Virus record (IMG/VR): IMGVR_UViG_3300028898_000325
Span: 2,631 to 66,630 of that record
Source of the DNA: a virus
Length of the DNA: 64,000 nucleotides
Reading direction: 5' to 3' (one strand)
Position 1 is the first letter of the stretch. Each line of letters begins with the position of its first letter. The notes under the pieces are model-generated. The model was given only the letters and a program-made list of their open reading frames with translations, searched no databases and was not told the DNA's origin. The position numbers were made by a program, and so were the translations under genes. Positions 1-28,650 of this stretch are shown here, piece by piece.

Positions 1-2
1 CA

Positions 3-548
3 AAAGAGGCGATACAGGCCAGGATAAACGAAATAAACGAAAAGATCACCCCGGATGTATCCGATTGGATGCGGGAAGAATTGCTTTCCCGGAAATCAAA
101 GCTTTCAGGCGGCTTTGCCCTGCTTTACATTGGTGGGAAGACTGCCGGTGAGATAAAGGAATTAAAAGACCGCTGCGAAGATGCTGTTTTGGCTGTTCGC
201 TCTGCCATTGAGGCAGGATATTTGCCCGGATGTGGTAAAGCGTATCTTATGGCCTCAAAAAAATTGCCCGGAAAATCTATTTTGATCGAAGCGCTGCACT
301 CAATTACTCGGCAGGTTTGCTTTAACGGAGACATCAACGAAATACAAACCGGGGAAATCATTTTAAAAATGCTTTCATCTGGCGTTACTTTTGGCTACAA
401 CGCCCGAACCGATACAATGGAGGATTTATTTAAAGCCGGTGTTATTGATAGCGCAAAAGTTGTCATTTCAGCCCTTCAGAATGCCGTTTCCGCTGCCCTG
501 GCCTTTGTAAACACGGAATTTATCATTGCTCAGGAAAAGAAAGATTAA
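3..548 (+). CDS. groEL: Chaperonin GroEL-like protein, C-terminal part (5' truncated by window edge)
   Basis: The frame is open from nt 3: ARINEI..SDWMREELLSRKSKLSGGFALLYIGG...KDRCEDAVLAVRSAIEAGYLPGCG...GYNARTD..DLFKAGVIDSAKVVISALQNAVSAA. This follows the GroEL apical/equatorial motifs (KERxxDAxxAxxAAxxxGxxPGGG; GIIDPxKVxxxALxNAxS). Confidence 0.92.
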   Translation, partial: KEAIQARINEINEKITPDVSDWMREELLSRKSKLSGGFALLYIGGKTAGEIKELKDRCEDAVLAVRSAIEAGYLPGCGKAYLMASKKLPGKSILIEALHSITRQVCFNGDINEIQTGEIILKMLSSGVTFGYNARTDTMEDLFKAGVIDSAKVVISALQNAVSAALAFVNTEFIIAQEKKD

Positions 549-796
549 TCACCTTCCAGTATCCATGTATAGGATTTTTTGTACCGATCCTTCCATTTGT
601 GCAGGAAGTCAATGGTAACGCCGTATGTGGCAAGTTCCAGCGCTTTCAGGTGGGAAAGTTTAACATCCATGGATTCAGCAAATTCTTTTTGAGTAAGCCC
701 GGCTTGATGCCGGGTTTCTCTTAGTCTTTTGGCAATGCCTGGATCACCAACCTTTGGCTTTACAGGCTTTTTCTTTTTTGTTTTGCTGACGGACAT
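545..796 (-). CDS. XRE-family helix-turn-helix regulator
   Basis: IAKRLRETRHQAGLTQKEFAESMDVKLSHLKALE matches the HTH_3 pattern. Confidence 0.85.
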   Translation of the reverse strand: MSVSKTKKKKPVKPKVGDPGIAKRLRETRHQAGLTQKEFAESMDVKLSHLKALELATYGVTIDFLHKWKDRYKKSYTWILEGD

Positions 797-839
797 TTTT
801 TTAGTTTGTTAAGGAGCGGACGAAAATACAAAAAAAGGA

Positions 840-889
840 TTGAGTTGCGGCAATTGGGCGGAACTGCGGCAATACAAGAGTTAGCAGCA
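840..889 (+). other. Putative attI-like entry site of cassette array 1
   Basis: It ends in GA|GTTAGCAGCA (GTT at 880) and has no left hairpin arm. TTGAGTTGCGGCAATTGGG (840-858) is 17/19 identical to the reverse complement of 12531-12549. TGCGGCAAT occurs twice in direct orientation. Confidence 0.5.
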
Positions 890-1150
890 ATGCCTGACCA
901 ACACACAATCCTGCTTTGCTATATGCCGCCACATGGTTCGCTGCCCAGCATAGTCCTCCCACAATACATAGTCTTTAATGCCACCAGCATTATCAACGTC
1001 AAATTCTTCACCGATTAAGTTTCTATACCAACCCTGCTCGTATGAGCATTGGGTAATTCTGACCCGACAAGGAGCAGGCGGCAGGGCACTGCTGCTAACA
1101 TCGGTTTGCTGCAAGTCAGGCTGATTGTTTTCTAATGAACTGTTTTCCAT
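881..1150 (-). CDS. Hypothetical phage protein in cassette A (antisense to attC)
   Basis: 89-aa ORF. The stop TAA lies inside the core at 880-889 and the ATG lies inside the attC at 1090-1231. Confidence 0.65.
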   Translation of the reverse strand: MENSSLENNQPDLQQTDVSSSALPPAPCRVRITQCSYEQGWYRNLIGEEFDVDNAGGIKDYVLWEDYAGQRTMWRHIAKQDCVLVRHCC

Positions 1151-1231
1151 TTTGTAAACTTTAGTTTGTTATTAAATACTGTTGTGCTGCCAAGTCCTGC
1201 CCTGACAGCAAGCCGTCAACCGTTGTAGGCA
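1090..1231 (+). repeat. attC-like recombination site (array 1, #1)
   Basis: TGCTGCTAAC - GGTTTGCTGCAAGTCAGG ... CCTGACAGCAAGCC - GTTGTAGGCA. The arms are imperfect inverted repeats between AAC and GTT cores, with the longer spacer on the GTT side. Confidence 0.8.
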
Positions 1232-1278
1232 ATTTGGCAACCGTCTCCATAATCTAAACTTCACCTAAAAACTTTCGT

Positions 1279-2097
1279 ATGACACCAAAAACTCTTTTAA
1301 TTATGTTAATGGCACTTGTTTGCCAAAACGCATTTGCTCAAAATAAAAAATCAAATAAAGAAGCTCCTAACAAATTCGAGAACATTGATACCACTTCTTC
1401 ATCAAATCAAAAAGGAACTGAGGACATCAGTGAATATGGAGGAACACCAATAGTGACAAGAACAAGTAAATTTATTGAAATTTCTGAGGAAAAATCAGGT
1501 GAGGAAATTGCAAGTTTATATGATGAATGTGTGGTGATTATCAGTGGGTCATCCTCCACATTTTCCAGTCAAGGTAGCGGAGTAATAATATCTTCTGATG
1601 GTTATTTAATAACAAATTATCACGTGATAGCTGGAATGAACAATATAACCGCTTCCAATGCTATTATTAAAAATACTCCAGTCACAATTATATTTAAAGA
1701 CCAAACTAATGACATAGCACTTTGCAAACTTCCTAAATCAAATTATAAGACTGCTCAATTTTGGTTTGGTGATGCGCTTTTTAAGGGGTCGACAATATAT
1801 GCTATTGGAAGTCCATTAGGAACTCCAAATATGATTACAAAAGGAATTGTGTCCGGTAAGTATATCGAAGATGGTAAAGCATATATAGTTCATGACGCAG
1901 CCATGGGCAGCGGATCTAGCGGAGGAGCATTAATAAATGCAAAAGGTCTTCTTGTAGGCATCAATACAAAAGTGAAATTGCAACAAAAAGAAACTGTTGT
2001 TCAAAACTTCAATTATGCAATACCAATTCACGTAATTGAAAATATTCTTAAAGAAGCAGGTTATGAAAATGTTCTTAAAAATACTTCATCCAAATAA
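1279..2097 (+). CDS. Secreted trypsin-like serine protease (S1/HtrA-like catalytic domain, no PDZ), cassette B
   Basis: Signal peptide ending AFA|Q; GSGVIISSDGYLITNYHVI (His), NDIAL (Asp), GSSGGALIN (Ser). Confidence 0.9.
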   Translation: MTPKTLLIMLMALVCQNAFAQNKKSNKEAPNKFENIDTTSSSNQKGTEDISEYGGTPIVTRTSKFIEISEEKSGEEIASLYDECVVIISGSSSTFSSQGSGVIISSDGYLITNYHVIAGMNNITASNAIIKNTPVTIIFKDQTNDIALCKLPKSNYKTAQFWFGDALFKGSTIYAIGSPLGTPNMITKGIVSGKYIEDGKAYIVHDAAMGSGSSGGALINAKGLLVGINTKVKLQQKETVVQNFNYAIPIHVIENILKEAGYENVLKNTSSK

Positions 2098-2100
2098 AAC

Positions 2101-2303
2101 TGCCTACAACAAATGTATTACAGCAAGCGGGGCAGAAGTACAAATCATCAGCTGGAAACCGCTACTGTACTGCATTCACGCATGCAGTACAGCTATGGAA
2201 CATCGGTTGTAAACATCAAATTTTAAATCAATAATCGGCTGCAGTCCCACGCATGCGGAACATGAAAAATCCCGCCTGCTTTAATACTCGGTCGTTGGGC
2301 GCA
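2101..2303 (+). repeat. attC-like recombination site (array 1, #2; long)
   Basis: TGCCTACAAC - GTATTACAGCAAGCGGG ... CCCGCCTGCTTTAATAC - GTTGGGCGCA. It begins 3 nt after the protease stop codon. Confidence 0.8.
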
Positions 2304-2306
2304 ATA

Positions 2307-2747
2307 CTACGCTACCATTAATTCAGGATTTTCATATTTATTACCAATAACTTCTGTTTGATTCCACCATTCTATTGAGTATAATGAGCATTGGTCTTCT
2401 GACACTGTTGCATGGAAAGCGTAATCCTTCCAAACGACAACATTCCACCCTCCTTGCCAATTTTTTACAATATCTCCTTCCCATATTTCTTTACCATTTT
2501 TATCCTTCAACCCTGTATTTTGAAGGAAAATAGATTCATTCGGGAAAATGTCATATTTGTTTTCGTCTGGAACATACTGTGTTAACTCATTGTGTAACTC
2601 AAATGATTTCCCCATCTTTTTTAAAGACGGAATCCACGCCTTAAAATTTAATTTTCTTTTCATAATAAACGTACATGCGCCCAACATTTGCTTTGTGGCA
2701 ATAGTGGCAGAAGTGCCAGCTTCAACTTTTGATTTTCTATTTGACAT
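2307..2747 (-). CDS. YopX-like phage protein, cassette C (alternative start 2663)
   Basis: KLNFKAW...LQNTGLKDKNGKEIWEGDIVK...EVIGNKYENPEL is the YopX family signature. Confidence 0.88.
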   Translation of the reverse strand: MSNRKSKVEAGTSATIATKQMLGACTFIMKRKLNFKAWIPSLKKMGKSFELHNELTQYVPDENKYDIFPNESIFLQNTGLKDKNGKEIWEGDIVKNWQGGWNVVVWKDYAFHATVSEDQCSLYSIEWWNQTEVIGNKYENPELMVA

Positions 2748-2814
2748 AAGAATATATTTTGAACATTTGATTAATAAATTCCACTACTGCACAAAGCAGT
2801 TCAACGTTGGGCGT
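2676..2814 (+). repeat. attC-like recombination site (array 1, #3)
   Basis: TGCGCCCAAC - TGCTTTGTGGCAATAGTGG ... CCACTACTGCACAAAGCA - GTTGGGCGT. The left arm carries one extra base. Confidence 0.85.
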
Positions 2815-2856
2815 AAGCACTACCAGCATTTATTGCCAGTAGTGCTGCCCGACAAA

Positions 2857-3111
2857 TTAAGAACGTGGAGGCCAGTGCCAGGTTCTTGGCTCTTTAGTTT
2901 CGCTGTAAGGAACAGAAGTTGCCCATACATCTTTTTCACCATCAGCCAATACTTTTAAATTCACCTCATCGTTTTCGTATGAAGTGTTTTCCCACGTTCT
3001 TACAATAACAGCAGGTGACGTTTCGCCATTATTGTTTTCTTTTCTTGCATCTTCTGGCCACACGTAGATTACTACTCTACCAGAAGACGGCTTTACTTCG
3101 GACTTTGCCAT
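2857..3111 (-). CDS. Conserved-looking phage hypothetical protein, cassette D
   Basis: PSSGRVVIYV...PAVIVRTW...VNLKVLADG..W.TSV...WHWPPR resembles a small phage protein family recalled from memory; function unknown. Confidence 0.75.
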   Translation of the reverse strand: MAKSEVKPSSGRVVIYVWPEDARKENNNGETSPAVIVRTWENTSYENDEVNLKVLADGEKDVWATSVPYSETKEPRTWHWPPRS

Positions 3112-3172
3112 TTTATTTACGGTTTGACCAGAGCCGTTATGGTTTAATTTTCTATTAAATTACCCGTGCCTA

Positions 3173-3309
3173 ACGCCCAACAAACGGTTTGGCGGCAGTC
3201 GGGGGACAAGTGCAAATCCTCATCTTCGCTTATCTATCGGCTTCGGAAATATGGTCAGCAGCAGTTTTTCAAATACCGCCCGACCGCCAAGCCGAAACCG
3301 TTAGCGGCC
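3173..3309 (+). repeat. attC-like recombination site (array 1, #4)
   Basis: ACGCCCAAC (GCCCAAC fits RYYYAAC) - GGTTTGGCGGCAGTCGGG ... CCCGACCGCCAAGCC - GTTAGCGGCC. Confidence 0.85.
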
Positions 3310-3311
3310 AT

Positions 3312-3641
3312 TTAATATTTAAAGCGATCATACGCCTGTATATTTTTTTTCATTTTGGTTTCTACAAAAAACTTTGCCATGCTTTCCATCATTGCTTTCA
3401 GTTCTTCATTTATGTTCCCGTGGAAAATTACTTTGTTATCAAGCGGGTACCAGGTTGTTACTGCAATGTTGTATCCGGGCACTCTTTCTTCTGCCAGTGG
3501 CTTTATTTTTTCCATCTGCTGGTTAAGCAGCTGGGTATCTTTGTACATCCATACCCTGCATATCCATAAAGGAAAAACAGTGTGCAGGATGTAGGTCCCG
3601 TCTTCTATGTTTACGAAAACAAATTTTTCTACTTTAGGCAT
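3312..3641 (-). CDS. Hypothetical protein
   Basis: Likely start MPKVEKFVF (ORF is open to 3683); the stop is adjacent to the attC #4 core. Confidence 0.65.
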   Translation of the reverse strand: MPKVEKFVFVNIEDGTYILHTVFPLWICRVWMYKDTQLLNQQMEKIKPLAEERVPGYNIAVTTWYPLDNKVIFHGNINEELKAMMESMAKFFVETKMKKNIQAYDRFKY

Positions 3642-3867
3642 CTTGCTTTTTGATTTTAAACTGTATTTCCACACCGTAACCATTAACTATCTCTTCCAGT
3701 ATATCCAGGCTAATATTTCGGATTCCCCTTTCTATGTACGAAAGGTTTGAAGCAGCCTGACCGGTTTTTGCTGCAGCATCTTCTAAAGTTAAATTTTGCT
3801 TTTTCCGGAATGCTTTTAGTGCGGATCCAACTTGTGATTTTAAATCTTCTGTGGTTTTCTCTTTCAT
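3634..3867 (-). CDS. XRE-family helix-turn-helix regulator
   Basis: LKAFRKKQNLTLEDAAAKTGQAASNLSYIERGIRNISLDILEEI matches HTH_3. Confidence 0.88.
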   Translation of the reverse strand: MKEKTTEDLKSQVGSALKAFRKKQNLTLEDAAAKTGQAASNLSYIERGIRNISLDILEEIVNGYGVEIQFKIKKQDA

Positions 3868-3966
3868 TTTTGGGGAGTGTTGATGCACCGGAGCAGCCAT
3901 ATAGGATAACGCCCCGGTGGGTTGTGTTTAGTTAAGGGCAAAATTGCGGGTTTATACTTGCTTTTT

Positions 3967-4197
3967 TCACCCTACAAACATTTTTTTAAGTGCATATATC
4001 TGGGTCCATAATGTAGGGTGTTTTTGCCCATCAAAAAGGCTGTGACCTTCCAACGGGGTTTTCTGCAAATGAAATTCAACAGAGTTTAACGCCATGCTGG
4101 CGGTAAACAATAACTCCCCTATCTTTTCCCGTTTATCTTTGGGAAGTAGCTTTATATTTTGCAATAGTGCTGTGTCGGTGGTTTGTTGTGCTTTCAT
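3967..4197 (-). CDS. Hypothetical protein
   Basis: 76-aa ORF in a run of minus-strand genes. Confidence 0.55.
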   Translation of the reverse strand: MKAQQTTDTALLQNIKLLPKDKREKIGELLFTASMALNSVEFHLQKTPLEGHSLFDGQKHPTLWTQIYALKKMFVG

Positions 4198-4241
4198 GCT
4201 GCACCGCTATTTATTTAACCGGTTAGCGTTCCGGGGGTTGG

Positions 4242-4505
4242 TTAATATTTCATTGGTGATGTTAAAAGACTGTCTAACTGATCGGCGTCTAAATCCGGGT
4301 ATTCAATGTGCAAAATATCTATTTCGTAGCCGTCCGTTCCCGGTTCGCATTGGGTGTATGCCGCAACCGCTTCCGGTGCATCTGTTACCCCTTTGTACGG
4401 GCACAATTTCCAGCGGCAAGCGTGACCAGGATTTTTACACCCGGCGCAACACATGAGCAGGGCGGCAATTATTATGAGTAGTAAGTGGATGTTTTCTTTT
4501 TTCAT
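4242..4505 (-). CDS. Putative lipoprotein
   Basis: MKKENIHLLLIIIAALLMCCAGC: basic N-terminus, hydrophobic core and lipobox-like Cys. Confidence 0.55.
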   Translation of the reverse strand: MKKENIHLLLIIIAALLMCCAGCKNPGHACRWKLCPYKGVTDAPEAVAAYTQCEPGTDGYEIDILHIEYPDLDADQLDSLLTSPMKY

Positions 4506-4573
4506 TACATTAGGTTTATGTGTTAATTAAAAAGGGGTACGGATTAAAAACAAAGCGGGGTAATAGTTATTTT

Positions 4574-4753
4574 TTAATAATAAAAAAAACGAGCGGTTAA
4601 TTTATCGGCTGGCTCTAACTGGTGCTTACTCCTGTAGAACTCTTTCGCTTGTTTGCATGTTTTACTTTGATCTGTGCTACAGACATAACGTCCATTTATA
4701 AACAAGTCAATTTTATAGCATCCAGTAGAACTGTTATATTTTTTATTTTTCAT
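4574..4753 (-). CDS. Small hypothetical protein (59 aa, not in ORF track)
   Basis: Manual translation: MKNKKYNSSTGCYKIDLFINGRYVCSTDQSKTCKQAKEFYRSKHQLEPADKLTARFFYY. Confidence 0.55.
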   Translation of the reverse strand: MKNKKYNSSTGCYKIDLFINGRYVCSTDQSKTCKQAKEFYRSKHQLEPADKLTARFFYY

Positions 4754-4839
4754 TGTCTTAGCTTTTAGAAGGTTATTTTTTAGGCCGTATAATTTGCAGC
4801 CAGTAAGCGCCGGTGAATTTCATGGTGGGTAGGGTGGGG

Positions 4840-6900
4840 TTATGGTTTGTCTAATATTACAGTTACAGTACTTACTCCGGTCGGACGAAATACACTGGCG
4901 AAGCTTCCTGCTGGGTTCTCTTCAATTGTTCCGTAGCGCTCAACCATTTGTAAAAATTCCGGGCTTCTGTGTTTGTTGTTAGCCATTATTGCTACCAATC
5001 TGCCGCCGCCGTTCAATAATTGGAATGCGTGTTTTACATGTTCAACATCCTGCAGGTTTTCAAACGGCGGGTTCATAATTATTTTGTCGAACTTTAAAGA
5101 TTCAGTATCGTTAAGCATGTTTAAAAAATCGCCGTTTTGCACTAAATGCCCCTTTGCTTTTAGCGCTTCAAATAAAGAATGGTTAATTTCAACGCAAAGC
5201 AGCTCATTGCCGGGGTGATCTGCTTTTATTTGATCTGCGATGTGCCCAAGTCCGGCGGATGGTTCCAAAATGGTGTCGCCGGGTTGAATGTTTGCCAATT
5301 CAACTATCTGCGCTGCAAGTGTTTCGGGGGTAGGGAAAAAACCTGGTATTTTTGATCCTATAAATTTTCTTTCGAGCTCTTTTATTTGCAGGCTTCTTTT
5401 TTGCTCTTCGCTTAATCCTGTGCCTTTTTCAAGGTTAAGCAGCTCACGCAATGCAGCCCTTAATTCTTCAATTGTATCTATACCGATGCGCTGAAGTCTT
5501 TTCATGTGCATTAACTGTTCTTTATATCGGTCAATTTGCCAACTATCCACAACGCTACATCTCTGGCAAAATAGAGTTTCGTAGTCCTCTACCCTTTGCT
5601 GGCTGTTTATGAGTATATACTCGTAAGGTGCCAATCTTTTAAGCATGCGGGAAGCGGCTAGTTTTTTGCCGGGAACATCTTTCATTCTCTCAATCTCTCC
5701 TTTTCGGTTTGCATATAAAATAGGGTATGGTAATTCTGCAAAGTTCACCGTCTCTAAACTTGTTTGGTATTTGCTGCGGTCTAAATTCAAAGCGTTTATG
5801 TGCCGGTTTTTCGCCATACTCAAAATACTTTTAAGCTCTTCAAGGTCTCTGCTATTGCTTATTTTGTATAGATATTTTATTTCTTCAGTCTCCATCGCTT
5901 CGCCAATTTTTACAAGTGTTTTGCCAAAGCTTATTTGTGCCGCCGCCTTTCTTTCGGCGTTTTCAGCCATTGCGGCCCGGCGGTGGGTGTTGGTTTCTCT
6001 GTCCCTGTTAAGTTCCCGCTCTCCATCTTTAATGAGGTTTATCCCTTTTTCTTTTAATGCTTCAGCTCTTGTTTGTTGTTTTTGCTCGGCGGATTGTTGC
6101 TTCAGCTCGCTTGCGTCTACATTGCCGTTCTTTACTTGTGCAAATAGTTCTGCCGCTTCTTTGTTTTCAAACGTGAATCCGGGAATAGCGCCGTTGCCTT
6201 TAAAGCTGGAATAGTAGCCGCCTAATTTTTTGGCTCTATTGTTTAACTCTTCATAAACAGAGCGTTGAACCCTTGTATCGAGCACGACAACCCAAAGAGG
6301 TATTTGTTTTTTTGCATGGAAACTTTCTTTTATGTGCATTTCAGCACTTACGTTCTCAACAGATGCAACCTGTGCCTTTTGTTTTTCTTCTCTTTCTTTT
6401 ATGGCTCTTCTTAAATCTGCTGTTAATTCATCGTATTTTATCCGCTGTTCACTGGTTAGGGCCGCCTCCCCTTTACTAGCTATGAAGCTGCGAAACTCTT
6501 CAAGCGTTTCGGGGTTGTTCAGTGCCTTTTCTCTTTCCTCTCTTTTGGCTTGCAATTTTGCTTTATATGCGGCGTATGTCTCTGCGGTGTAAGAGTTTGT
6601 TATTCTCTTTAAAGCCTGCTGCCATGTTTCATCAAATGGGGAATAAGAAAAACTATCCCCCATCACGGCGCATTGCGCTATTGTAGAAAATACACTATCA
6701 ACCGCCTGTTTTTTATTGTCGGCTCTGTACGTGTATTTTTTAAGGGTTGCAACTGTTTCTTTCGCAATCAATCCTTTCAAAAAATCTTCTTCAGTCAAAA
6801 CAAACTCCTTAAATGTTTGCCAGTCTTCAAAAGAATGTCCGTTTGAATACAACGTCCTCGCTGTATTAAGTAGCTCCGTAAAATTGTTTGGCTTATTCAT
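4840..6900 (-). CDS. Large protein with C-terminal class I SAM-dependent (probable N6-adenine DNA) methyltransferase
   Basis: FFPTP..LAAQIV, ILEPSAGLG (motif I), IIMNPPF (motif IV); long helical N-terminal region. Confidence 0.85.
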   Translation of the reverse strand: MNKPNNFTELLNTARTLYSNGHSFEDWQTFKEFVLTEEDFLKGLIAKETVATLKKYTYRADNKKQAVDSVFSTIAQCAVMGDSFSYSPFDETWQQALKRITNSYTAETYAAYKAKLQAKREEREKALNNPETLEEFRSFIASKGEAALTSEQRIKYDELTADLRRAIKEREEKQKAQVASVENVSAEMHIKESFHAKKQIPLWVVVLDTRVQRSVYEELNNRAKKLGGYYSSFKGNGAIPGFTFENKEAAELFAQVKNGNVDASELKQQSAEQKQQTRAEALKEKGINLIKDGERELNRDRETNTHRRAAMAENAERKAAAQISFGKTLVKIGEAMETEEIKYLYKISNSRDLEELKSILSMAKNRHINALNLDRSKYQTSLETVNFAELPYPILYANRKGEIERMKDVPGKKLAASRMLKRLAPYEYILINSQQRVEDYETLFCQRCSVVDSWQIDRYKEQLMHMKRLQRIGIDTIEELRAALRELLNLEKGTGLSEEQKRSLQIKELERKFIGSKIPGFFPTPETLAAQIVELANIQPGDTILEPSAGLGHIADQIKADHPGNELLCVEINHSLFEALKAKGHLVQNGDFLNMLNDTESLKFDKIIMNPPFENLQDVEHVKHAFQLLNGGGRLVAIMANNKHRSPEFLQMVERYGTIEENPAGSFASVFRPTGVSTVTVILDKP

Positions 6901-6953
6901 ATTTATTCGCCTTTCGCCTGTTGGCCCGGCGGCTGTGCCGGTGGTTTATTTGA

Positions 6954-7214
6954 TTAACAATTAAAATTTAAAGAATACTGAGAAAAGCTATTTTTCATCA
7001 CATCCGCAATGGCATATATACCTGAAGCCTTAGCCGGTGGCAATTGTCCGGTAAGTTGTCGTGCTATCTCTTGCCTCAGCATGATATTGTTCGCACCGCT
7101 TAAATACTGGGCGCAATGAAAATCAAAGCATTGGGGGCTATTCATGTAACTATTTTTTAGTGCATTAATTACATCCGTTGCCCGTGTGGTTAGTGTTACT
7201 TTGTTGTTTTGCAT
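6954..7214 (-). CDS. Hypothetical protein
   Basis: 86-aa ORF that shares a leader repeat with the methyltransferase gene. Confidence 0.6.
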   Translation of the reverse strand: MQNNKVTLTTRATDVINALKNSYMNSPQCFDFHCAQYLSGANNIMLRQEIARQLTGQLPPAKASGIYAIADVMKNSFSQYSLNFNC

Positions 7215-7265
7215 AATATATTCGCCCTTTCGCTATTGCCCGGCAGGCTGAACCGGTTGTTATGG

Positions 7266-7421
7266 TTAATTGAATGGGTTTTTGCTTTTAGAATTAAAAA
7301 CCATTGCCCACGCTTTTGCGTACATTTCAGCAGCCTTGCCAACTGGCACTTTTACATGGGGAAAGCCGGCTTTGCAAGCCATTTTATAAACTTTCTTATC
7401 AAATTTGTTTGCGGTGGTCAT
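7266..7421 (-). CDS. Small hypothetical protein (51 aa, not in ORF track)
   Basis: Manual translation MTTANKFDKKVYKMACKAGFPHVKVPVGKAAEMYAKAWAMVFNSKSKNPFN; it fills a gap in the minus-strand run. Confidence 0.45.
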   Translation of the reverse strand: MTTANKFDKKVYKMACKAGFPHVKVPVGKAAEMYAKAWAMVFNSKSKNPFN

Positions 7422-7441
7422 ACTGCAGTGTTTTGTTGTCA

Positions 7442-7558
7442 TCAATCAATTAGCGTATAAAAAGGAAACAACCGGTAAAACTTCTCAGTAGCTTTTGCCT
7501 CGTTAACCTCAGTTATTGTAACGGTCCCGGCGGTAGTATTGAAAATGAATGTTTGCAT
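7442..7558 (-). CDS. Small hypothetical protein (38 aa, not in ORF track)
   Basis: Manual translation MQTFIFNTTAGTVTITEVNEAKATEKFYRLFPFYTLID; tightly packed between its neighbours. Confidence 0.4.
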   Translation of the reverse strand: MQTFIFNTTAGTVTITEVNEAKATEKFYRLFPFYTLID

Positions 7559-7568
7559 GACCTATATA

Positions 7569-7772
7569 TTAATTTACCTTAATACTGTTCTCTTCGTTTA
7601 AAAATGAAACTACCTCTGAAATTTCATCCATATATCTGCCCTTCTCGCCACCTTCCATTGAAGTACGAACAAGTTGCAACCCGTTGTCCTGTTCTATACT
7701 GTCAATTATCCAAACTATACCGGATGTAGTTTGGAACTTAGAACCTTGAAGTATGTCGTTAACTGTTATCAT
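7569..7772 (-). CDS. Hypothetical protein (first gene after a TAACTTTG promoter)
   Basis: ATG 7772 is preferred over GTG 7793 because the -7 box overlaps the latter. Confidence 0.55.
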   Translation of the reverse strand: MITVNDILQGSKFQTTSGIVWIIDSIEQDNGLQLVRTSMEGGEKGRYMDEISEVVSFLNEENSIKVN

Positions 7773-7795
7773 TGTTTCATCGTTTGTTGACACAA

Positions 7796-7812
7796 AGTTA
7801 TGCTATATAACT
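7796..7812. promoter_or_regulatory. 17-bp palindromic operator-like motif overlapping a minus-strand TAACTTTG -7 box
   Basis: AGTTATGCTATATAACT; TAACTTTG on the minus strand at 7793-7800. Confidence 0.55.
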
Positions 7813-7964
7813 ATATAAACAAGCAAAAAGTATCAAATTTGATAAATTTAGTAGCTGTTCAATAAAATGCCTATATTTTATAACATTTGATAAAATTTAA
7901 ACGTAAAATTGAATAAAATTGAAAATATTTTAGTCTCGCAAATTCCCGGCAAAACACTTTTGAA

Positions 7965-7981
7965 GGTTATAAAGCATAACC
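7965..7981. promoter_or_regulatory. 17-bp palindromic operator-like motif
   Basis: GGTTATAAAGCATAACC; its reverse complement matches the 18673 copy at 15/17. Confidence 0.45.
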
Positions 7982-8126
7982 ATGCAAATAAACATGAGAG
8001 AGAACACCGGCGCCGGCACCAGCCGCAACACCACCAAACAGTGAAAAAAGTAAAAATGAAGCCTCCGAGAATTGAATAGAGAAAAACAAATTGCGCTATT
8101 GTACAGGATAAGCCAGGCTTACAGCC

Positions 8127-8510
8127 TTATTCAGCAGCATTCGGCAGGCCCGGCAGACCACGGGCCGCCAGCTTGTGCAATATCTTTTCGTAACGAGAGA
8201 GTAACAGACGACCGGACGTGGTGATGACCAGCGGTGAACGCTGACTACCACGAGCCAAATAGCCACGTTTGAGCAAACCCTGAACAAGATCATTTACAAA
8301 ACCAAAGGAACGAGTATTCCTACAAGCCTTTAATATCTTCCCTACTTTATCGTAAGTCACAGCAACCCCATGAGCATTGCAATAAACAACATACACCAAC
8401 GCAATTAAATCAACCCTCCTAACCTCCCAACCTTCCATAGATGATAACACAGAAAGGGCAGAGCCTTCATTCAACGTTGAACAAACCAACGGAAAATCAG
8501 CTAACACCAT
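8127..8510 (-). CDS. Hypothetical protein, possible winged-helix DNA-binding protein
   Basis: YDKVGKIL...VNDLVQGLLKRGYLARG...LVITTSGRLLL resembles MarR-like wHTH; the start codon is uncertain (ORF open to 8639). Confidence 0.4.
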   Translation of the reverse strand: MVLADFPLVCSTLNEGSALSVLSSMEGWEVRRVDLIALVYVVYCNAHGVAVTYDKVGKILKACRNTRSFGFVNDLVQGLLKRGYLARGSQRSPLVITTSGRLLLSRYEKILHKLAARGLPGLPNAAE

Positions 8511-9032
8511 TACAGACGAACGCAATTGTAATTTATCGCCCAAAATTAAACAGAGTTTGTACTCAATTGAGTGATTTATGAAGGGGTTAATTGCACATTT
8601 GCAGACACATTGGCGCATTAGATCCTGACATAACGGCACAATGTGTTATAACATTATGAAAATCAGTATGAATGCAAGGCGCAAAAGCAACGCCCACAAT
8701 ATTAATTATGTTAAATAGGCCATTTTTCACCCCAAATATACACCTTATCTTTCCATTTGAACGCTGCGAGAATTGAATATTTACCCTCAACCCCTCCCCT
8801 ACCCTACCGGATGTGCTGCAAATTGGTTTATTTTCCGTGATAACCATGCGAATTGCTTTGAAATTTCCAGATTCCCCTTTTCCCGCCGACCATAAAAAAG
8901 ACCCCACCCGGTCGCAAAATTCCCGTTTCCCCAGGCAAAACGACCCCGGCTTTATAAGGTATTATCCCTCCATTCCATCCACACGTCCTATTTTAACAGG
9001 CTGTGAATGGATGTGGCGGTTAATTTTTGGGT

Positions 9033-9320
9033 TTAGTATTTGAGTGTTAATACTTTTACCACATTCATTTGGGCGTTGAGGATTTCGCCTATGGTGTGGT
9101 GGTAAAGTATTGTGGCATGCTGTGATAGTGCTTTTTGTTGGGTTACTTCTCTTTCCTGTATTTCATCATGCAGGAGGTCTGCAAGTTCTGCGCAAAGTTT
9201 TTTTGCCTTGGTTACTTTGTCATCGTTTGATGGGTTGAAGGTTAATCCTACGAGTTTTTCCCCGAAAGTCATTGGTCTTTGTGGGGCTACATCTACTGGG
9301 CTTGATTGTGTTGTACTCAT
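9033..9320 (-). CDS. Small helical phage protein, possibly Acb2/Tad1-hairpin-like
   Basis: TFGEKLVGLTFNPSND...AKKLCAELADL...IGEILNAQMNVVKVLT; family resemblance recalled from memory, not searched. Confidence 0.45.
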   Translation of the reverse strand: MSTTQSSPVDVAPQRPMTFGEKLVGLTFNPSNDDKVTKAKKLCAELADLLHDEIQEREVTQQKALSQHATILYHHTIGEILNAQMNVVKVLTLKY

Positions 9321-9548
9321 AATATTGTCGGTTTTACCGGAGCCGATACGGTTTATTTTGATTGATCGCTTGTTTTGTTTACTTCTTATCGCTTTCTTTG
9401 TTATCGTTGGGATTTGGGGAGGTGTGTGGCTTGTTTGAGTTCCTCTTCTGTGTTCCCGTAGAGCGATTTAAAGACTACGGTTTTCTGTTGTTTTTCCATT
9501 GTGTGTTTGTTTATGGTTGCGAAGGATCACCCTTTGAGTATTCTTTGA

Positions 9549-9761
9549 TTATTTGGTTGGGCATGAGGGTAGTTTTATTTTTTTAAGCAGCATTGACATT
9601 AGGTAATCATATATACTGAAAACTTGTTTAAACTTGTCTACGCCTGAAAATATCCAGTATACCCCAGCCAGTACAAGCAGTACAGAATAGAGAGAGGTTA
9701 TTAGAAACGCCGCTGGCATCCAGGGTATTATTTTAATAAAAAAAACGAGTCTGTTTGTCAT
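9549..9761 (-). CDS. Small membrane protein
   Basis: Long hydrophobic stretch; ATGA overlap with the upstream gene. Confidence 0.5.
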   Translation of the reverse strand: MTNRLVFFIKIIPWMPAAFLITSLYSVLLVLAGVYWIFSGVDKFKQVFSIYDYLMSMLLKKIKLPSCPTK

Positions 9762-10033
9762 AGTTTTGTTTCGTTGTTTGTGGAGGGGTTTTGTTTTGAC
9801 TGAAGGAACATTTGATATGCCCCATCGGATGTGACATACTTCATATCGAGACCTATCCATGTACCATTGGAAGCGGACTGAAAATCTAACTTGTGATTGC
9901 TCATGAAGTTTGCAAACTCAATCGCCTCCCGCCGGCACAGTTCCTCTATCTGCTTTGTAAAGTCCGCTTCGTCTTCTCTTGTGAGGTATTGGTATTTGTC
10001 AATCTTTTGAACTAATTCGTAGGCTTTACTCAT
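9758..10033 (-). CDS. Hypothetical protein
   Basis: 91 aa; shares EAIEF and Y..FLQ.KQ motifs with its neighbour. Confidence 0.65.
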   Translation of the reverse strand: MSKAYELVQKIDKYQYLTREDEADFTKQIEELCRREAIEFANFMSNHKLDFQSASNGTWIGLDMKYVTSDGAYQMFLQSKQNPSTNNETKL

Positions 10034-10296
10034 TGCTGCTGTTTTTGCTGCAAGAAAATTTGATAATACTGTTCCATTGATTCATAGGTGCCGTGACTAT
10101 CTACAAATACACCAAGCGAAACCTCCAGCATTCTACCTGTAGCAAATTCAAGGAACTCAATCGCCTCCTGCTTGGCGTACTCGTCCATAGCCTTTTCTAT
10201 TTCTTCGATTTGGCTATTAGGGTCGCCACCCCAACTGTAGCATTCCGTACTATCCCATCCGCTGTCTTCAAGTATTTCTTCTTTTGTTTTTGTCAT
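10030..10296 (-). CDS. Hypothetical protein
   Basis: 88 aa; MTKTKEEIL...KAMDEYAKQEAIEF. Confidence 0.65.
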   Translation of the reverse strand: MTKTKEEILEDSGWDSTECYSWGGDPNSQIEEIEKAMDEYAKQEAIEFLEFATGRMLEVSLGVFVDSHGTYESMEQYYQIFLQQKQQQ

Positions 10297-10406
10297 GCCT
10301 CAGAGTTTTTTCTTAACAAAAACCAAAGATAGGAAAAAATATTTGGTTATGTGGCATAACTTTATGTTATTTGTGGTTATATTGTATGACTTTAAAAAAC
10401 GAAAGA

Positions 10407-10655
10407 ATGAAAACATTTATTTCTGTTGCGCTTGTGCTCGCCATGTGCTTGTACGTTTCCCGGATGAACATTCAGGCAAAGCCATTCAAAGTGTCATTCG
10501 GAGATCTCCCAGCGGGGCTCGGTGTATTGTTTATTGTCCTGGCGGTTATTTGCTTTCAGCTATCAGGATATAAACGAGGGGTGAAAGATGGATATAGTGA
10601 AGCCGTTGACGATGTTATTGAACTTTCAAAAGAGAAAAAGCAGCCTGCAGAATAG
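10407..10655 (+). CDS. Membrane protein
   Basis: Two hydrophobic segments followed by GYKRGVKDGY. Confidence 0.6.
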   Translation: MKTFISVALVLAMCLYVSRMNIQAKPFKVSFGDLPAGLGVLFIVLAVICFQLSGYKRGVKDGYSEAVDDVIELSKEKKQPAE

Positions 10656-10696
10656 CGTCTCCCTCCCCTGCCTTCATGGGGTGAAAGTATGGGGGA

Positions 10697-10827
10697 GGTA
10701 ACGGCTCCGGGTGTTTGCGAAGGGATGGAATAGTAGCACTTCCGCCCAACAACAACAAATGCCCGGCTTTGCAAATGGTTGAGAACTTATTCGTCAGCCA
10801 GCCTTTTGCAAATACCAATGTTCTATG
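10697..10827 (-). repeat. attC-like recombination site (array 2, distal)
   Basis: On the + strand: GGTAAC - GGTGTTTGCGAAGGGATGG ... CCAGCCTTTTGCAAATACC - GTTCTATG; the arms are 15/19 complementary. Spacer asymmetry indicates minus orientation. Confidence 0.75.
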
Positions 10828-10877
10828 TCTGTATTTTGCGAAGCTGCGGAGCTTTACTAACAATTTAAAAAGAGGTT

Positions 10878-11156
10878 ATGACAACAGAAAATGCTTTAGA
10901 CTTAGTAAAAATGTATGCTCAACCTGCTAAATCTTCTTTTGGCGGCGAACTGGATTATAATATAATTCCTTCAAAGCAATTCTATCATTTAGCAAATGAA
11001 ATTGCTGAAAAGGTAAACATGTGGCAAGATCAGGCCATTACGCTGCATAAGATTATTTATAAAATGATGAATGAAGAAATACCTACTTATGATATGAAGG
11101 AAGGGGAGGTAATTAAAAGTATTGTTGCTGAAATTGTAAATAACACAAAAAAATAA
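10878..11156 (+). CDS. Hypothetical protein (cassette E, gene 1)
   Basis: 92-aa ORF between paired cores at 10820 and 11571. Confidence 0.6.
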   Translation: MTTENALDLVKMYAQPAKSSFGGELDYNIIPSKQFYHLANEIAEKVNMWQDQAITLHKIIYKMMNEEIPTYDMKEGEVIKSIVAEIVNNTKK

Positions 11157-11161
11157 ATTTT

Positions 11162-11575
11162 ATGGTAGATAAGAAAAAACTTGCCGAAATATTTAACCTT
11201 CCAGTGAGTGAAGTTGAAACAATTTTTGAAGCTGCATTGGTTTATCAATGTGATGCACAAAATGAAGGGTATAGAGATTGGTGTAAAATGTATGATGGCA
11301 TTCATAGGGAAATGCACGGGGAAACAGCAATAAGAAACTGGCTTGCATTTAGAAGATGGCAAAAATCAAGGGCACAGCCTTCTATTAAAGAGTTTATGAA
11401 TCTCGCAAATGAGTTGAGTAATACATCTACGGATAAACAATTTAGATATGTTCTTACTCATTCACAACTTATAAAGCTGTATGAATTTGCGCAAGCTGGT
11501 GCTATTAATGCTGAAATTCAAACGTCCAGCCCATTAAAGAACGAAAAGTGTGGCAAGGGGCAAAATATAGCATAG
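11162..11575 (+). CDS. Hypothetical protein (cassette E, gene 2)
   Basis: 137 aa; the stop TAG lies inside the core CATAGAAC. Confidence 0.65.
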   Translation: MVDKKKLAEIFNLPVSEVETIFEAALVYQCDAQNEGYRDWCKMYDGIHREMHGETAIRNWLAFRRWQKSRAQPSIKEFMNLANELSNTSTDKQFRYVLTHSQLIKLYEFAQAGAINAEIQTSSPLKNEKCGKGQNIA

Positions 11576-11683
11576 AACGTGCCGGGTGCTTACGAAGGCG
11601 GGATATTGACTTGAGGCAGTTTGGCTTTGCGATTGTTCCGGCTTTGTTCCTTCGCCCCGCTTTTGTAAGCACCATGTTATGTA
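11571..11683 (-). repeat. attC-like recombination site (array 2, middle)
   Basis: CATAGAAC - GGTGCTTACGAAGGCGGG ... CCCGCTTTTGTAAGCACC - GTTATGTA; the arms are 16/18 complementary. Confidence 0.85.
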
Positions 11684-11785
11684 TCAGTAGGGCAATGACT
11701 GTTCCTGCTGCTGAATAGAATTACTGAAGAAAAAATGCGGGGACGGCTGAAGTCACAGCCACTCCGAAACACTAAAAACAAAAGC

Positions 11786-12169
11786 ATGAAAATTTATACT
11801 GCAAGCAAAACGAAACACGCTCACAAATGGATTGAGCTAAGAAATAACGGCGTGAATGTTATTTCAACTTGGATTGATGAAGCAGGGCAAGGGCAAACAA
11901 AAGACATGGCTGATTTGTGCCGCCGTTGCATTCAGGAAAGTATTGACTGTGATGCAATGATTGTGTATGCAGAAGAAGGCGACTATTTGAAGGGTGCATT
12001 TATTGAAATGGGCATTGCTCTTAGCGTTCCCTCTAAGCCGATTGTGTTGGTTGGCGAAGTGCTGCCTTTCGGTTCAGCATTCACGTATGCGCCACAAGTT
12101 TTCAGGGCTAAAACAATAGAGGCGGCTTTGGAACTGTTAGAAACTTCCAAAACGCCGGTCACGGCGTAG
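11786..12169 (+). CDS. Nucleoside 2-deoxyribosyltransferase-like (NDT-fold) protein, cassette F
   Basis: MKIYTAS...ISTWID...CIQESIDCDAMIVY...KGAFIEMGIAL..KPIVLVG follows the NDT pattern (xIYLAG ... D ... GxxxExGxA). Confidence 0.7.
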   Translation: MKIYTASKTKHAHKWIELRNNGVNVISTWIDEAGQGQTKDMADLCRRCIQESIDCDAMIVYAEEGDYLKGAFIEMGIALSVPSKPIVLVGEVLPFGSAFTYAPQVFRAKTIEAALELLETSKTPVTA

Positions 12170-12226
12170 GGAAGCGTGGGGCATTTTTTCTAAACTGAAG
12201 TTCGGTTATGTTCAAAAGCCCTATTG

Positions 12227-12365
12227 TACATAACGTCGAGAGGCTTTGTGCCTGTTGCCGAATTTGAAATTATTCACTCTAAAATTTATACAAATGTCCA
12301 AAAGTAAAAAGAAAGTTGAGCCGACTTCCCAAAGCGGCAATAGCACAAAACCTGTGTTATATGCC
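12227..12365 (-). repeat. attC-like recombination site (array 2, proximal)
   Basis: TACATAAC - GGCTTTGTGCCTGTTGCCG ... CGGCAATAGCACAAAACC - GTTATATGCC; one extra base in one arm. Confidence 0.85.
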
Positions 12366-12527
12366 GTTGGCGATTTGGTGAAAATCATTGCTAATGTTGA
12401 TTATGTAGGTTCAGTTGGTCGGGTGATTGATTTAAACGAACCTGGCCCTCATCCGATAAAGGTTCAATTTGAGGACACTTGGTGTTGTTATGCAGCCGAT
12501 GAGATATGTCACGCCAATGGCATATAA
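12294..12527 (+). CDS. Hypothetical protein, possible SH3/KOW-like fold (cassette G)
   Basis: AVGDLVKII...GSVGRVID...PIKVQFED. The ATG lies inside the attC and the stop TAA lies inside the core GGCATATAAC. Confidence 0.6.
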   Translation: MSKSKKKVEPTSQSGNSTKPVLYAVGDLVKIIANVDYVGSVGRVIDLNEPGPHPIKVQFEDTWCCYAADEICHANGI

Positions 12528-12549
12528 CTCCCCAATTGTCACAACTCAA
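12519..12549 (-). other. Putative attI-like entry site of cassette array 2
   Basis: Minus strand TTGAGTTGTGACAATTGGGGA|GTTATATGCC; no hairpin arm; matches 840-858 at 17/19. Confidence 0.5.
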
Positions 12550-12554
12550 CACAA

Positions 12555-12824
12555 ATGATTGAACCCCAATATTATCACCAAATTAAAAAAGGCTCTACGG
12601 TAACTCTGTGGAATGGCAGTTACCGTGTGCAAGAGGATAGAGGGCATTTGTATGTTGTGATGAAAGTAAATGGGCAACGTAAAAAGAAAACAATCACACC
12701 AGAATTATTCCCGGAACCAGGCAGTTTGCAGGATTTTATTTTTCATCAATGGTTTCAGGATTATACCGAGCAGGAATTTTATTCATTCGCTTCAGCCGAA
12801 TTAAGCTGGCTGGGGATAAATTAA
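12555..12824 (+). CDS. Hypothetical protein
   Basis: 89-aa ORF in a + strand run. Confidence 0.6.
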   Translation: MIEPQYYHQIKKGSTVTLWNGSYRVQEDRGHLYVVMKVNGQRKKKTITPELFPEPGSLQDFIFHQWFQDYTEQEFYSFASAELSWLGIN

Positions 12825-12829
12825 AATAT

Positions 12830-13054
12830 ATGAGTATGGAAAAGAAAAATGAAGGGCAAATTGTCACTTGTACGTGTATGGTATGCGGCCAAAAGTTTAA
12901 AGGTGAAGAGCCGCAAATGTGTTGTGACGGAAGGGGTTGCGGATGTATGGGAAAGCCGATAGATCCAGTTGTGTGTTCTACTGAATGCTTCTATAAATTA
13001 ATGCTTTGTCAAGTCCCTTCACCCCATTCACTCACAACCCCGAAGAGGGGATAA
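12830..13054 (+). CDS. Small Cys-rich protein
   Basis: CTCMVC, CCDGRGCGC and CSTEC clusters. Confidence 0.55.
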   Translation: MSMEKKNEGQIVTCTCMVCGQKFKGEEPQMCCDGRGCGCMGKPIDPVVCSTECFYKLMLCQVPSPHSLTTPKRG

Positions 13055-13067
13055 AAAAGAAAGTATC

Positions 13068-13460
13068 ATGTTTACACAAGGATTAAGTTATCAAAAAACA
13101 ATTTCAATGGTTACAGAGGTATGCTGTAACTGCGGTATAGCTTTTGGTATGCCGTCCGATTTTAGAGACGTATTGCTCAATGACTCGAACAAGTCGTTTT
13201 ATTGTCCTAATGGTCATGGTCAGCATTTTGTAAAAAGTCGTGAACAGCAATTAAGGGAAGATGCAGAAAAAAAGTTACGTCAAAAGGAAAACGAACTTGC
13301 GAACTTAACAGCATCGAAAATTCAGTTAGAAAGCGAACTACAAAAAACGCAAAGAAAATTAAAGCGGGTCCATAACGGCACGTGCCCATGCTGTAAAAGA
13401 AGTTTTCAAAACCTGGCTAATCACATGAAATCTAAGCATCCTGAACTATTAACCAAGTAA
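13068..13460 (+). CDS. Zinc-finger/coiled-coil protein
   Basis: CCNCG..FYCPNGH, a coiled coil, then CPCCKRSF.NL.NHM...H (C2H2-like). Confidence 0.75.
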   Translation: MFTQGLSYQKTISMVTEVCCNCGIAFGMPSDFRDVLLNDSNKSFYCPNGHGQHFVKSREQQLREDAEKKLRQKENELANLTASKIQLESELQKTQRKLKRVHNGTCPCCKRSFQNLANHMKSKHPELLTK

Positions 13461-13465
13461 CCCCC

Positions 13466-13732
13466 ATGTACAACCTATCAACCGATTACGAAGAACTCTG
13501 GAGCTATGTTATCAAAGGCCATGAGCCGGTGTGCTTTGTGGATTCAATTTTATTCAATGAAAGAAAATCATCACGTGCAGTTGCAATGATAAAAAGGCAT
13601 TCTGAAAAAGACATTGATATTGGTGTAAGAGGCAGAAGCTATGGAGGTGTTACTCCATTTGACACCGCCCCCGAAAAAGAATTATTCATCTCCGAATGCA
13701 AGCGGCTTAACCTGCAATGGGTGAGGCCGTGA
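13466..13732 (+). CDS. Hypothetical protein
   Basis: 88-aa ORF, tightly packed. Confidence 0.6.
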   Translation: MYNLSTDYEELWSYVIKGHEPVCFVDSILFNERKSSRAVAMIKRHSEKDIDIGVRGRSYGGVTPFDTAPEKELFISECKRLNLQWVRP

Positions 13733-13744
13733 AAAAGAAAAATT

Positions 13745-14158
13745 ATGAACACAGAAAATAAAATACCGGTAAGAATACAAAGAAGCCGTCAACATAAGCA
13801 AGTCTCTCCAAATGGATTGCCGATTGTTTATGTAGGCCGTCCAACTATGTGGGGCAATCCTTTTAAACTTGTAGGCGATATGATTTATGTTGATGCAAGT
13901 CACAGGAGAAAGATTTTATCACCGTGGGTTTTGTTTATGGATGGCGGCGGTCATAGAGCTGAAGAAGTTGTAAAAATATTCAGGTCAATGATGATGGACT
14001 TAAACGCTTGGCCTGTTGAAGAACCAATTTATAAAAGGTTTCAATTAATGAGGGATAGGATAAAAGATTTGCAGGATAAAAACCTTTCCTGCTGGTGTCC
14101 GACAAGTTGCAAATGTCACGCTGATGTATTACTTGAACTTGCAAACCCCACCCCATGA
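13745..14158 (+). CDS. DUF4326-like protein
   Basis: VYVGRPTMWGNPF ... KNLSCWC...CHADVLLELAN. Confidence 0.85.
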   Translation: MNTENKIPVRIQRSRQHKQVSPNGLPIVYVGRPTMWGNPFKLVGDMIYVDASHRRKILSPWVLFMDGGGHRAEEVVKIFRSMMMDLNAWPVEEPIYKRFQLMRDRIKDLQDKNLSCWCPTSCKCHADVLLELANPTP

Positions 14159-22211: not shown

Positions 22212-22216
22212 TCCGT

Positions 22217-28096: not shown

Positions 28097-28648
28097 ATGG
28101 ATCCGTTAACAATAGCTGGTGGGGTAATAGGGCTGGGTAAAGTGCTTTTTGGCATAGGCCAAAACAGCAAAGCCAGCAGCGTTGTTGTGCCAAATGTAGA
28201 CTACAAAGATTCGCCTTACGCAACCTCAAAGCTTAATCTTGCCAAAGTATTATACGGCGGACGTATGCCCGGTGCTGCAGCAGCGGAGCAAAATTTACTG
28301 CAAAACAATTCAAACACATCTTCTGCAGTTCAAAGAAACGCTTCCAGTGGCGCACAGGCCTTATCCATGCTTTCGGCTATACAAGGGCAAACAGATTCCT
28401 CTTTGCTTGACCTAAGAAATCAGGAGGCGGGCTACTCTTTGAATATGCTGAATAATTTAAATCAGGCAAACGATACAATGTCTGATCAGTGGTATAAAAA
28501 TTATTTGGATGAAGTGCGGACGCAGGAACAAAAAATGGCTGAGAAAAGCGGACTGAGAAATGCGGCATGGCAGAACATCGGCGGCGGGGCAAACGAAATA
28601 CAGCAGGTTATTGGCAATCAGCAATTATTAAAAGCTTTGAAAAAATAA
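28097..28648 (+). CDS. Putative small DNA ejection/pilot protein
   Basis: Hydrophobic Gly-rich N-terminus (MDPLTIAGGVIGLGKVLFG) and Ala/Gln/Asn-rich helices. Confidence 0.65.
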   Translation: MDPLTIAGGVIGLGKVLFGIGQNSKASSVVVPNVDYKDSPYATSKLNLAKVLYGGRMPGAAAAEQNLLQNNSNTSSAVQRNASSGAQALSMLSAIQGQTDSSLLDLRNQEAGYSLNMLNNLNQANDTMSDQWYKNYLDEVRTQEQKMAEKSGLRNAAWQNIGGGANEIQQVIGNQQLLKALKK

Positions 28649-28650
28649 AT

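Follow-up and report, generated by a model that had tools for sequence, protein, structure and literature searches.

The DNA analysed here, referred to as the window, is a stretch of 64,000 nucleotides corresponding to bases 2631-66630 of the 71-kb IMG/VR provirus record IMGVR_UViG_3300028898_000325, which starts with a tyrosine integrase followed by GroES/GroEL-like genes and encodes a capsid protein of the SU10/crAss type. Two integron-like cassette arrays were found in the window, at 840-3308 and 10694-12549, which are mutually inverted and both run in the direction of local phage transcription. Each gene body lies between perfect inverted cores of 9-10 nt (GTTxxxxxx...xxxxxxAAC), and a hairpin of 100-130 nt stands upstream of each body in the sense of phage transcription. 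These are probably hairpin-first cassettes in which an ATG within the hairpin loop starts translation, either in frame with the cassette gene or as an upstream open reading frame (uORF). The features of the two arrays are given below, where ORF stands for open reading frame.

840-879, plus strand: attI-like entry site of array 1, with motif TTGAGTTGCGGCAATTGGG at 840-858, abutting the hairpin-less end of the array
880-1230, minus strand: cassette C1, with terminal core GTTAGCAGC at 880-888 and an ORF of 89 aa at 881-1150(-)
1091-1230: hairpin of C1, with inner core 1091-1099 and outer core 1222-1230 (cores 9/9 complementary) and loop ATG 1148-1150
1222-2214, plus strand: cassette C2, with a trypsin-like protease gene at 1279-2097(+), hairpin 2102-2214 and complementary cores GTTGTAGGC/GCCTACAAC
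2294-2814, minus strand: cassette C4, with terminal core 2294-2302, YopX gene (Pfam YopX) 2307-2747(-) and hairpin 2677-2814; in-frame loop ATG at 2745-2747 and family-typical ATG at 2661-2663
2806-3308, minus strand: cassette C5, with ORF 2857-3111(-), whose own start lies 70 nt past the core, and hairpin 3173-3308
10694-11578, plus strand: cassette D3, with hairpin 10694-10828 and genes 10878-11156 and 11162-11575, which have their own starts
11570-12234, plus strand: cassette D2, with hairpin 11570-11684 lacking a loop ATG and gene 11735/11786-12169, which has its own start
12226-12528, plus strand: cassette D1, with hairpin 12226-12365, inner core GTTATATGCC at 12356-12365 and terminal core GGCATATAAC at 12519-12528
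12294-12527, plus strand: ORF of D1, 77 aa, starting in the loop
12531-12549, minus strand: attI-like entry site of array 2, motif TTGAGTTGTGACAATTGGG

The core pairs of array 1 are GTTAGCAGC (880/1091), GTTGTAGGC (1222/2102), GTTGGGCGC (2294/2677) and GTTGGGCGT (2806/3173), and that of array 2 is GTTATATGCC (12356/12519), where hairpins 10694-10828, 11570-11684 and 12226-12365 are linked by near-perfect core pairs. The C2 protease (Pfam Trypsin_2, E 2.7e-26) is encoded by the sole ORF on the other strand.

An earlier reading of the same DNA, made from the sequence alone and referred to here as the sequence-only reading, had proposed that ORFs 881-1150, 2307-2747 and 12294-12527 begin in the hairpin loop and continue through the arm and core, and both their coordinates and their sequences were found to be as described. 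The loop ATGs at 1148-1150(-), 2745-2747(-) and 12294-12296(+) precede the inner GTT core by 51, 62 and 62 nt, respectively, and from each of them an uninterrupted frame crosses the 3' arm and the core and leads into the gene. Each of the three sits within the loop that the long stem closes, and the same holds for all 14 fused ATGs examined in this respect. In C1, no ATG, GTG or TTG is found for 135 nt after the core, and in D1 the sole downstream alternatives are a TTG at 12375 and a GTG at 12378; in these two ORFs, and in several related cassettes, the loop appears to hold the only credible start. The suggestion that the site acts as a portable translation-initiation module is partly supported: C1 and D1 agree with it, with initiation in the loop predicted from sequence, whereas the leader of the YopX gene is optional.

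To compare start codons, a start-context matrix was derived from 46 long genes outside the arrays, and scores were expressed as percentiles relative to all ATGs. Sequences upstream of gene starts were A-rich with no evident Shine-Dalgarno (SD)-like signal, which fits the Bacteroidota-type initiation that the sequence-only reading had assumed. Its description of A/T-rich, SD-less sequence upstream of the loop ATGs was likewise upheld, as these contexts are A-rich and typical of the real starts of the phage, with the loop ATGs of C1, D1 and YopX at the 99th, 96th and 94th percentiles. The D1 TTG and GTG and the YopX ATG at 2663 scored at the 8th, 24th and 28th percentiles, and downstream alternatives in general fell between the 4th and 37th percentiles, compared with the 94-99th for loop ATGs.

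Although they belong to different arrays, the leaders of 2307-2747 and 12294-12527 are of equal length, as had been noted; both comprise 24 codons, and their DNA is homologous, with 39 nt at 74% identity and a similarity that reaches upstream of the ATG. The corresponding hairpins, 2677-2814(-) and 12226-12365(+), are members of one hairpin family, for which an arm-based pattern added a single new member from viral contigs and none from the first 120 genome matches; in metagenomes it recovered only more copies of the D1 unit. AlphaFold assigns no secondary structure to residues 1-27 of the 881-1150 protein and models them with low confidence. Outside the arrays, a helix-turn-helix protein at 545-796(-) begins MSVSKTKKKK..., and the DNA of its start region resembles the D1 leader; Lys-rich heads may be a general start-region preference in this phage.

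The core is crossed in two phases, with GTT read either as a Val codon or as xxG TTx. A crossing in a second frame had been noted before, and the two phases do exist, but the example given for it does not lead a gene: the loop ATG at 10775 in D3 opens a 51-codon ORF that overlaps 10878-11156 out of frame, has a start context at the 13th percentile and would at most serve as a uORF.

Seven more contigs were recovered using a conserved loop segment as query, and the generality of loop starts was examined in 35 cassettes in all, from the window and five related phage contigs. Since a simple hairpin scorer used alone was no better than shuffled sequence, cassettes were defined by a core-chain rule. 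A hairpin ATG with its frame open through the 3' arm and core was present on the sense strand in 29 of the 35 cassettes, compared with 8 of 35 on the other strand. When the loops were shuffled (500 shuffles), the number of through-reading ATGs was 12.2±2.7, with a maximum of 21. Clustering of the loops at 70% identity gave 20 clusters, 16 of which contained a through-reading ATG; single-linkage clustering at 60-65% identity was discarded as uninformative, as shuffled loops reach 0.68. The loop ATG was fused in frame to the cassette gene in 16 of 35 cassettes, and in about half of the cassettes a leader of 17-26 codons, start codon included, lies inside the hairpin. In cassettes whose genes have their own starts, the loop ATG instead opens a short core-crossing ORF, such as that of C5, which has 17 codons and ends just beyond the core. 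The end of such an ORF and the start of the gene overlap as ATGA in two cases, with a few near misses, which suggests that loop uORFs may be coupled to own-start genes.

Homologues of the cassette genes were compared to see how leader and body vary. In one group of the C1 family, the DNA of the bodies is 90-97% identical over a stretch that opens shortly ahead of the inner GTT and closes with the terminal AAC. The loops in front of these bodies are unrelated to one another, and every one of them contains an ATG in frame. A second group consists of short forms with their own ATG, one of which (P0006, for which the context was retrieved) lies in a packed operon. Within the D1 family, the hairpin ATG of homologue P0014 lies three codons nearer the core with its phase unchanged, and P0017 and P0018 begin directly at the domain, P0017 in an ordinary operon where its context was retrieved. 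The leader MSTQVDLFT.VEPTSVSPAIAKPFV was found on five distinct bodies (one in two homologous copies), with the switch at the Val codon of the core. The sequence-only reading had proposed to check whether the leader varies independently of the body and switches exactly at GTT. The outcome was positive: the leader does vary independently, the switch occurs at or within about 12 nt of GTT, and the in-frame ATG is retained each time. Homologues of the YopX protein have the N-terminus M-x-R-x-x-K-F-R-A-W, which corresponds to residue 29 of the 2307-2747 protein, so that the leader is dispensable and the usual start of the family is the ATG at 2663.

Several of these observations weigh against initiation in the loop. 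The AT-rich loop in itself lifts the start-context scores, and because the hairpins are homologous the 29 of 35 through-reading ATGs are not fully independent counts. YopX, Z5, Y1 and some other cassettes have a downstream start matching the N-terminus of their family, and in L165_4702 a GTG would yield the canonical N-terminus. A rival explanation is that the loop ATGs are unused, with translation starting at downstream ATG, GTG, TTG or near-cognate codons, and that the open frames merely reflect the composition and common descent of the hairpins. The plausible downstream starts in YopX and several methyltransferases speak for this explanation, as does the fact that the hairpins form one broad family. 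It does not account for C1, Z1 and Z6, in which no start codon lies between the loop ATG and the conserved N-terminal region. Z1, like C1, has no start other than the loop ATG. In the Z6 methyltransferase, the alignment of the conserved N-terminal motif with CcrM begins at residue 30, right behind the core, so that the start must be one of the loop ATGs. Unrelated loops on one body each retain an in-frame ATG, and the excess over shuffled loops and over the opposite strand stands. The sequence-only reading had named starts confined to downstream ATGs, for example 2663, as the outcome that would speak against it; the YopX family does start there, whereas C1 and D1 have no credible alternative and the loop ATG is retained. 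Disuse of the loop ATGs is consequently considered improbable.

The boundaries of the mobile unit were defined by a 297-nt stretch covering D1 (12232-12528, from the outer AAC of the hairpin to the terminal AAC), which matched metagenome contig L151 with zero mismatches. In L151 this unit follows a dnaB gene and is bounded by AA|C at either end, and the sequences that flank it are unrelated to those in the window; contig L004 and, in part, L156 carry it in the same dnaB context. At the transcription-downstream end, the last body of each array is followed not by a hairpin but by the motif TTGAGTTGYGRCAATTGGG. This 19-nt motif occurs exactly twice in the 71-kb record (840-858, plus strand; 12531-12549, minus strand), once per array end and in opposite orientations. 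At the other end, the outer core of the first hairpin had no complementary upstream partner in 7 of 9 tests, which included arrays of related contigs. The three arrays of the related phage G001 each end in AAC|TAATGGCTATGCGC.... Together, the D1 unit boundaries and the array polarity indicate that the mobile unit is a hairpin plus its downstream gene.

Further details were noted at the array ends and between cassettes. No recombinase gene adjoins either TTGAGTTGYGRCAATTGGG site, and in array 1 a further TGCGGCAAT repeat lies between the motif and the crossover. The array ends of G001 at 27734, 31039 and 40685 (L160/L161) read AAC|TAATGGCTATGCGCTACTCATAGCGCATAG, a palindromic site whose stem, CTATGCGC/GCGCATAG, also makes the short hairpin of cassette Y1. 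In the window, an 80-nt stretch at 2215-2293, between cores GTTGTAAAC (2206) and GTTGGGCGC (2294), has no partner core or clear fold and is probably a decayed or empty cassette. The stop codons of cassette genes at 881-883, 12525-12527 and 11573-11575 lie in or beside the terminal core, with TAA or TAG just before AAC, so that the core also provides the stop. Between the two arrays lies a 686-aa gene for which only distant relatives were found, and no match in cultured phages was found for the 593-aa ORF at 28567-30348.

Of 17 ORF-bearing cassettes of the window and G001 that were inspected by hand, 16 have the hairpin ahead of the gene on the folded strand; the protease cassette is the exception and shows the canonical layout, with the ORF on the attC top strand and the hairpin downstream. 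Viewed on the opposite strand, such a unit has the form of a classical cassette (G|TT-gene-attC-G|TT) with its gene inverted. The sequence-only reading had described cassettes inserted antisense, and these cassettes are indeed inverted relative to the classical form, but this is the standard build of the cassette type and not an accident of insertion.

A consensus fold of 21 hairpins, those of relatives included, has 24 pairs, with compensatory changes in 17 of the 24, and describes an imperfect inverted repeat that folds as a single-strand hairpin with R and L boxes, as attC sites do. AACG...TGTT is invariant in 21 of 21 aligned hairpins, and core positions other than AAC/GTT frequently deviate from RYYYAAC/GTTRRRY (e.g. 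GTTATATGC and GTTGTAGGC). The 5' end of the cassette is complementary to its own inner core and the crossover is at G|TT, as seen from the perfect 9-10 nt pairs and the 297-nt unit, which is again as expected of attC. At two stem positions (alignment columns 10/134 and 30/119), G·U is found on the phage-sense strand in 20-21 of the 21 hairpins. These pairs would be A·C mismatches on the other strand, which indicates that the phage-sense strand is the one selected to fold.

Other observations fit this polarity poorly. Canonical attC sites have their extrahelical bases on the arm far from the position at which the recombined (bottom) strand is cleaved. In these hairpins it is the 5' arm of the sense strand, next to the crossover, that carries additional unpaired bases, namely a 4-6 nt spacer and sometimes a bulge, which is the reverse of canonical bottom strands. 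Blocks of homology were also found for bodies alone and for hairpins alone, and because of these blocks crossovers probably occur at the inner core too. A canonical polarity was also weighed, in which the phage-sense strand is the attC top strand and the hairpin of the upstream cassette gives its ATG and leader across G|TT to the next cassette. Extra bases on this arm are what a canonical top strand would show; moreover, homology of the C1 family with L220 and L221 runs up to the terminal AAC but reaches only 8-12 nt beyond the inner GTT on the upstream side, and the Z6 hairpin is 95% identical in L186, where the body differs. Such a polarity is nevertheless unlikely, as in D1 the hairpin and the body downstream of it move together, with AA|C at both ends, the arrays open with a partnerless outer core and close with a hairpin-less body at a conserved entry site, the hairpins downstream of C1 bodies differ too, and the sense strand is the one whose folding the conserved G·U pairs favour. 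The data could be reconciled with the hairpin-first arrangement if crossovers take place at both cores, as they may.

The hairpins could also be regarded mainly as RNA elements, with roles in stability, processing or uORF control and with mobility of a non-integron kind, comparable to the promoter stem-loop modules of T4-type phages. The conserved G·U pairs, which point to function on the transcribed strand, the lack of IntI in the record and the loop ORFs that end at or beside the next start, including the two ATGA overlaps, would agree with this. It is nonetheless very unlikely given the perfect complementary cores with invariant AAC/GTT around each body, the homology breaks exactly at AA|C, the conserved entry sites and the search for host-type promoter motifs, in which 0 of 35 hairpins had one on the sense strand. 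Host-type promoters in the loops were rejected on that same count. The Bacteroidota -7 motif TAnnTTTG was seen on the antisense strand of 6 of 35 hairpins (12299-12306(-) in the window and five in related loci) and on the sense strand of none, which may be due to chance. No Rfam match was found in window positions 1-14000.

A further point to be set against the favoured reading is that no integron integrase was found in this record or in G001. The integrase at the end of the record was considered as a candidate IntI and rejected, as TIGR02249 scored 34 bits (cut-off 265) and matched this prophage integrase only; the record has no other tyrosine recombinase, and a complete integron, with IntI bearing its specific insertion beside attI, was not found in it. 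With 4-5 hairpins in 880-3308 and 3 in 10694-12528, as called by the core-chain rule, and no IntI, the arrays are candidate clusters of attC sites lacking an integrase (CALINs), which comprise two or more attC sites within a few kb. The hairpins are thus integron-like, and their belonging to the IntI-type attC sites is not established. In G002, a complete related phage of 41.8 kb, a 277-aa Xer-like tyrosine recombinase (L212 1372-2292; G002 22171-23055) is encoded beside an array end, with its ATG at a distance of 51 nt. This enzyme matches the IntI model in two pieces (158 bits), and the insertion region specific to IntI is absent from it. The layout in G002 resembles intI-attI-cassettes. The cassettes may be moved by an Xer-like enzyme rather than by IntI, with a host IntI as the other candidate.

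Under the hairpin-first interpretation, the mobile unit would consist of a recombination hairpin followed by a gene on the strand of phage transcription, such that the transcribed strand is also the folding strand and its 5' AA|C the crossover point. The large A/U-rich loop would present an ATG in a good SD-less initiation context, on which ribosomes could load, initiate and then melt the 3' arm and core during elongation. Where elongation proceeds in frame into the gene, an unstructured head of 17-26 residues would be added, necessarily in C1 and D1 and optionally in YopX; alternatively, the loop ORF would stop near a gene with its own start and serve as a uORF. The stems have predicted RNA stabilities of -30 to -50 kcal/mol and the genes abut them, and a start in the loop would avoid the occlusion of a start sited just behind so stable a stem. 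More broadly, and with rather less confidence than in the loop starts themselves, Bacteroidota-type phages could be pictured as keeping an integron-like cassette class of their own. The hairpin would then be a self-contained initiation module, consisting of an open A-rich loop with its ATG and a leader that can be dispensed with. Reassortment of hairpins and bodies would take place at both cores, gene fragments without promoter or start would become expressible from read-through transcripts once joined in phase behind a hairpin, and an Xer-like recombinase could be responsible. On balance this wider picture is slightly more apt to be wrong than right.

In integron biology, attC is regarded as a pure recombination site behind a gene that lacks a promoter, and it is still an open question how cassettes arise and come to be expressed. 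Here the site stands before the gene and appears to provide its start. This would explain how a phage expresses swapped accessory genes, such as methyltransferases, YopX and small unknown proteins, without signals for each gene. It also predicts a recognisable class of proteins with hairpin-encoded heads that gene callers and attC finders would mishandle, and gives an experimental handle on the coupling between recombination-site structure and translation.

Repeated stem-loops with expression signals are not without parallel. The promoter stem-loop modules (PeSL) of T4-type phages, reportedly described by Arbiol et al. in 2010, similarly lie between small genes in plastic phage regions and are linked to gene shuffling. 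Those modules carry promoters and involve homologous recombination, whereas the hairpins described here have no promoter motifs, exact core crossovers and start codons in their loops. Jacquier et al. are said to have found in 2009 that attC stem-loops in mRNA impede ribosomes; both there and here the hairpins would be RNA structures that affect the translation of cassette genes, but in that case the obstacle is downstream of the gene, whereas initiation inside the loop would let the ribosome open the hairpin.

CALINs have been reported in phage genomes (Qi et al. 2023, PMC9892861). The arrays in the window share with integron cassettes and CALINs the imperfect AAC/GTT hairpins, a cassette 5' end complementary to its own inner core, anchoring at one conserved entry site and homology breaks at G|TT (AA|C), and, like CALINs, they have no integrase beside them. 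They differ in that the genes are on the folded (bottom) strand with the hairpin before the gene, the loops bear a start codon and leader, the spacer/bulge asymmetry is reversed and the 7-mer cores often deviate from RYYYAAC/GTTRRRY; unlike in integrons, the only adjacent recombinase found, in a related phage, is Xer-like and lacks the IntI insertion. Loop-encoded starts are not reported in PMC9892861, from the text of which the term 'start codon' is absent, and no published description of start codons in attC loops or of hairpin-first cassettes was found in the literature. CALINs in phages are thus known, as are the ORFs of the class 1 attI1 site, and it is for the loop-encoded starts that no published account was found. 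ORF-11, ORF-17 and ORF-18 of attI1 are short ORFs with their own initiation signals that span the crossover point and drive translation of cassettes without initiation signals, by coupling or fusion (PMC8876359). As in the arrays described here, a start-bearing ORF runs across the recombination crossover; however, the attI1 ORFs belong to attI, serve the first cassette only, use an SD sequence and follow the canonical direction, whereas in the present arrays the module lies in the hairpin loop and each cassette has one to itself.

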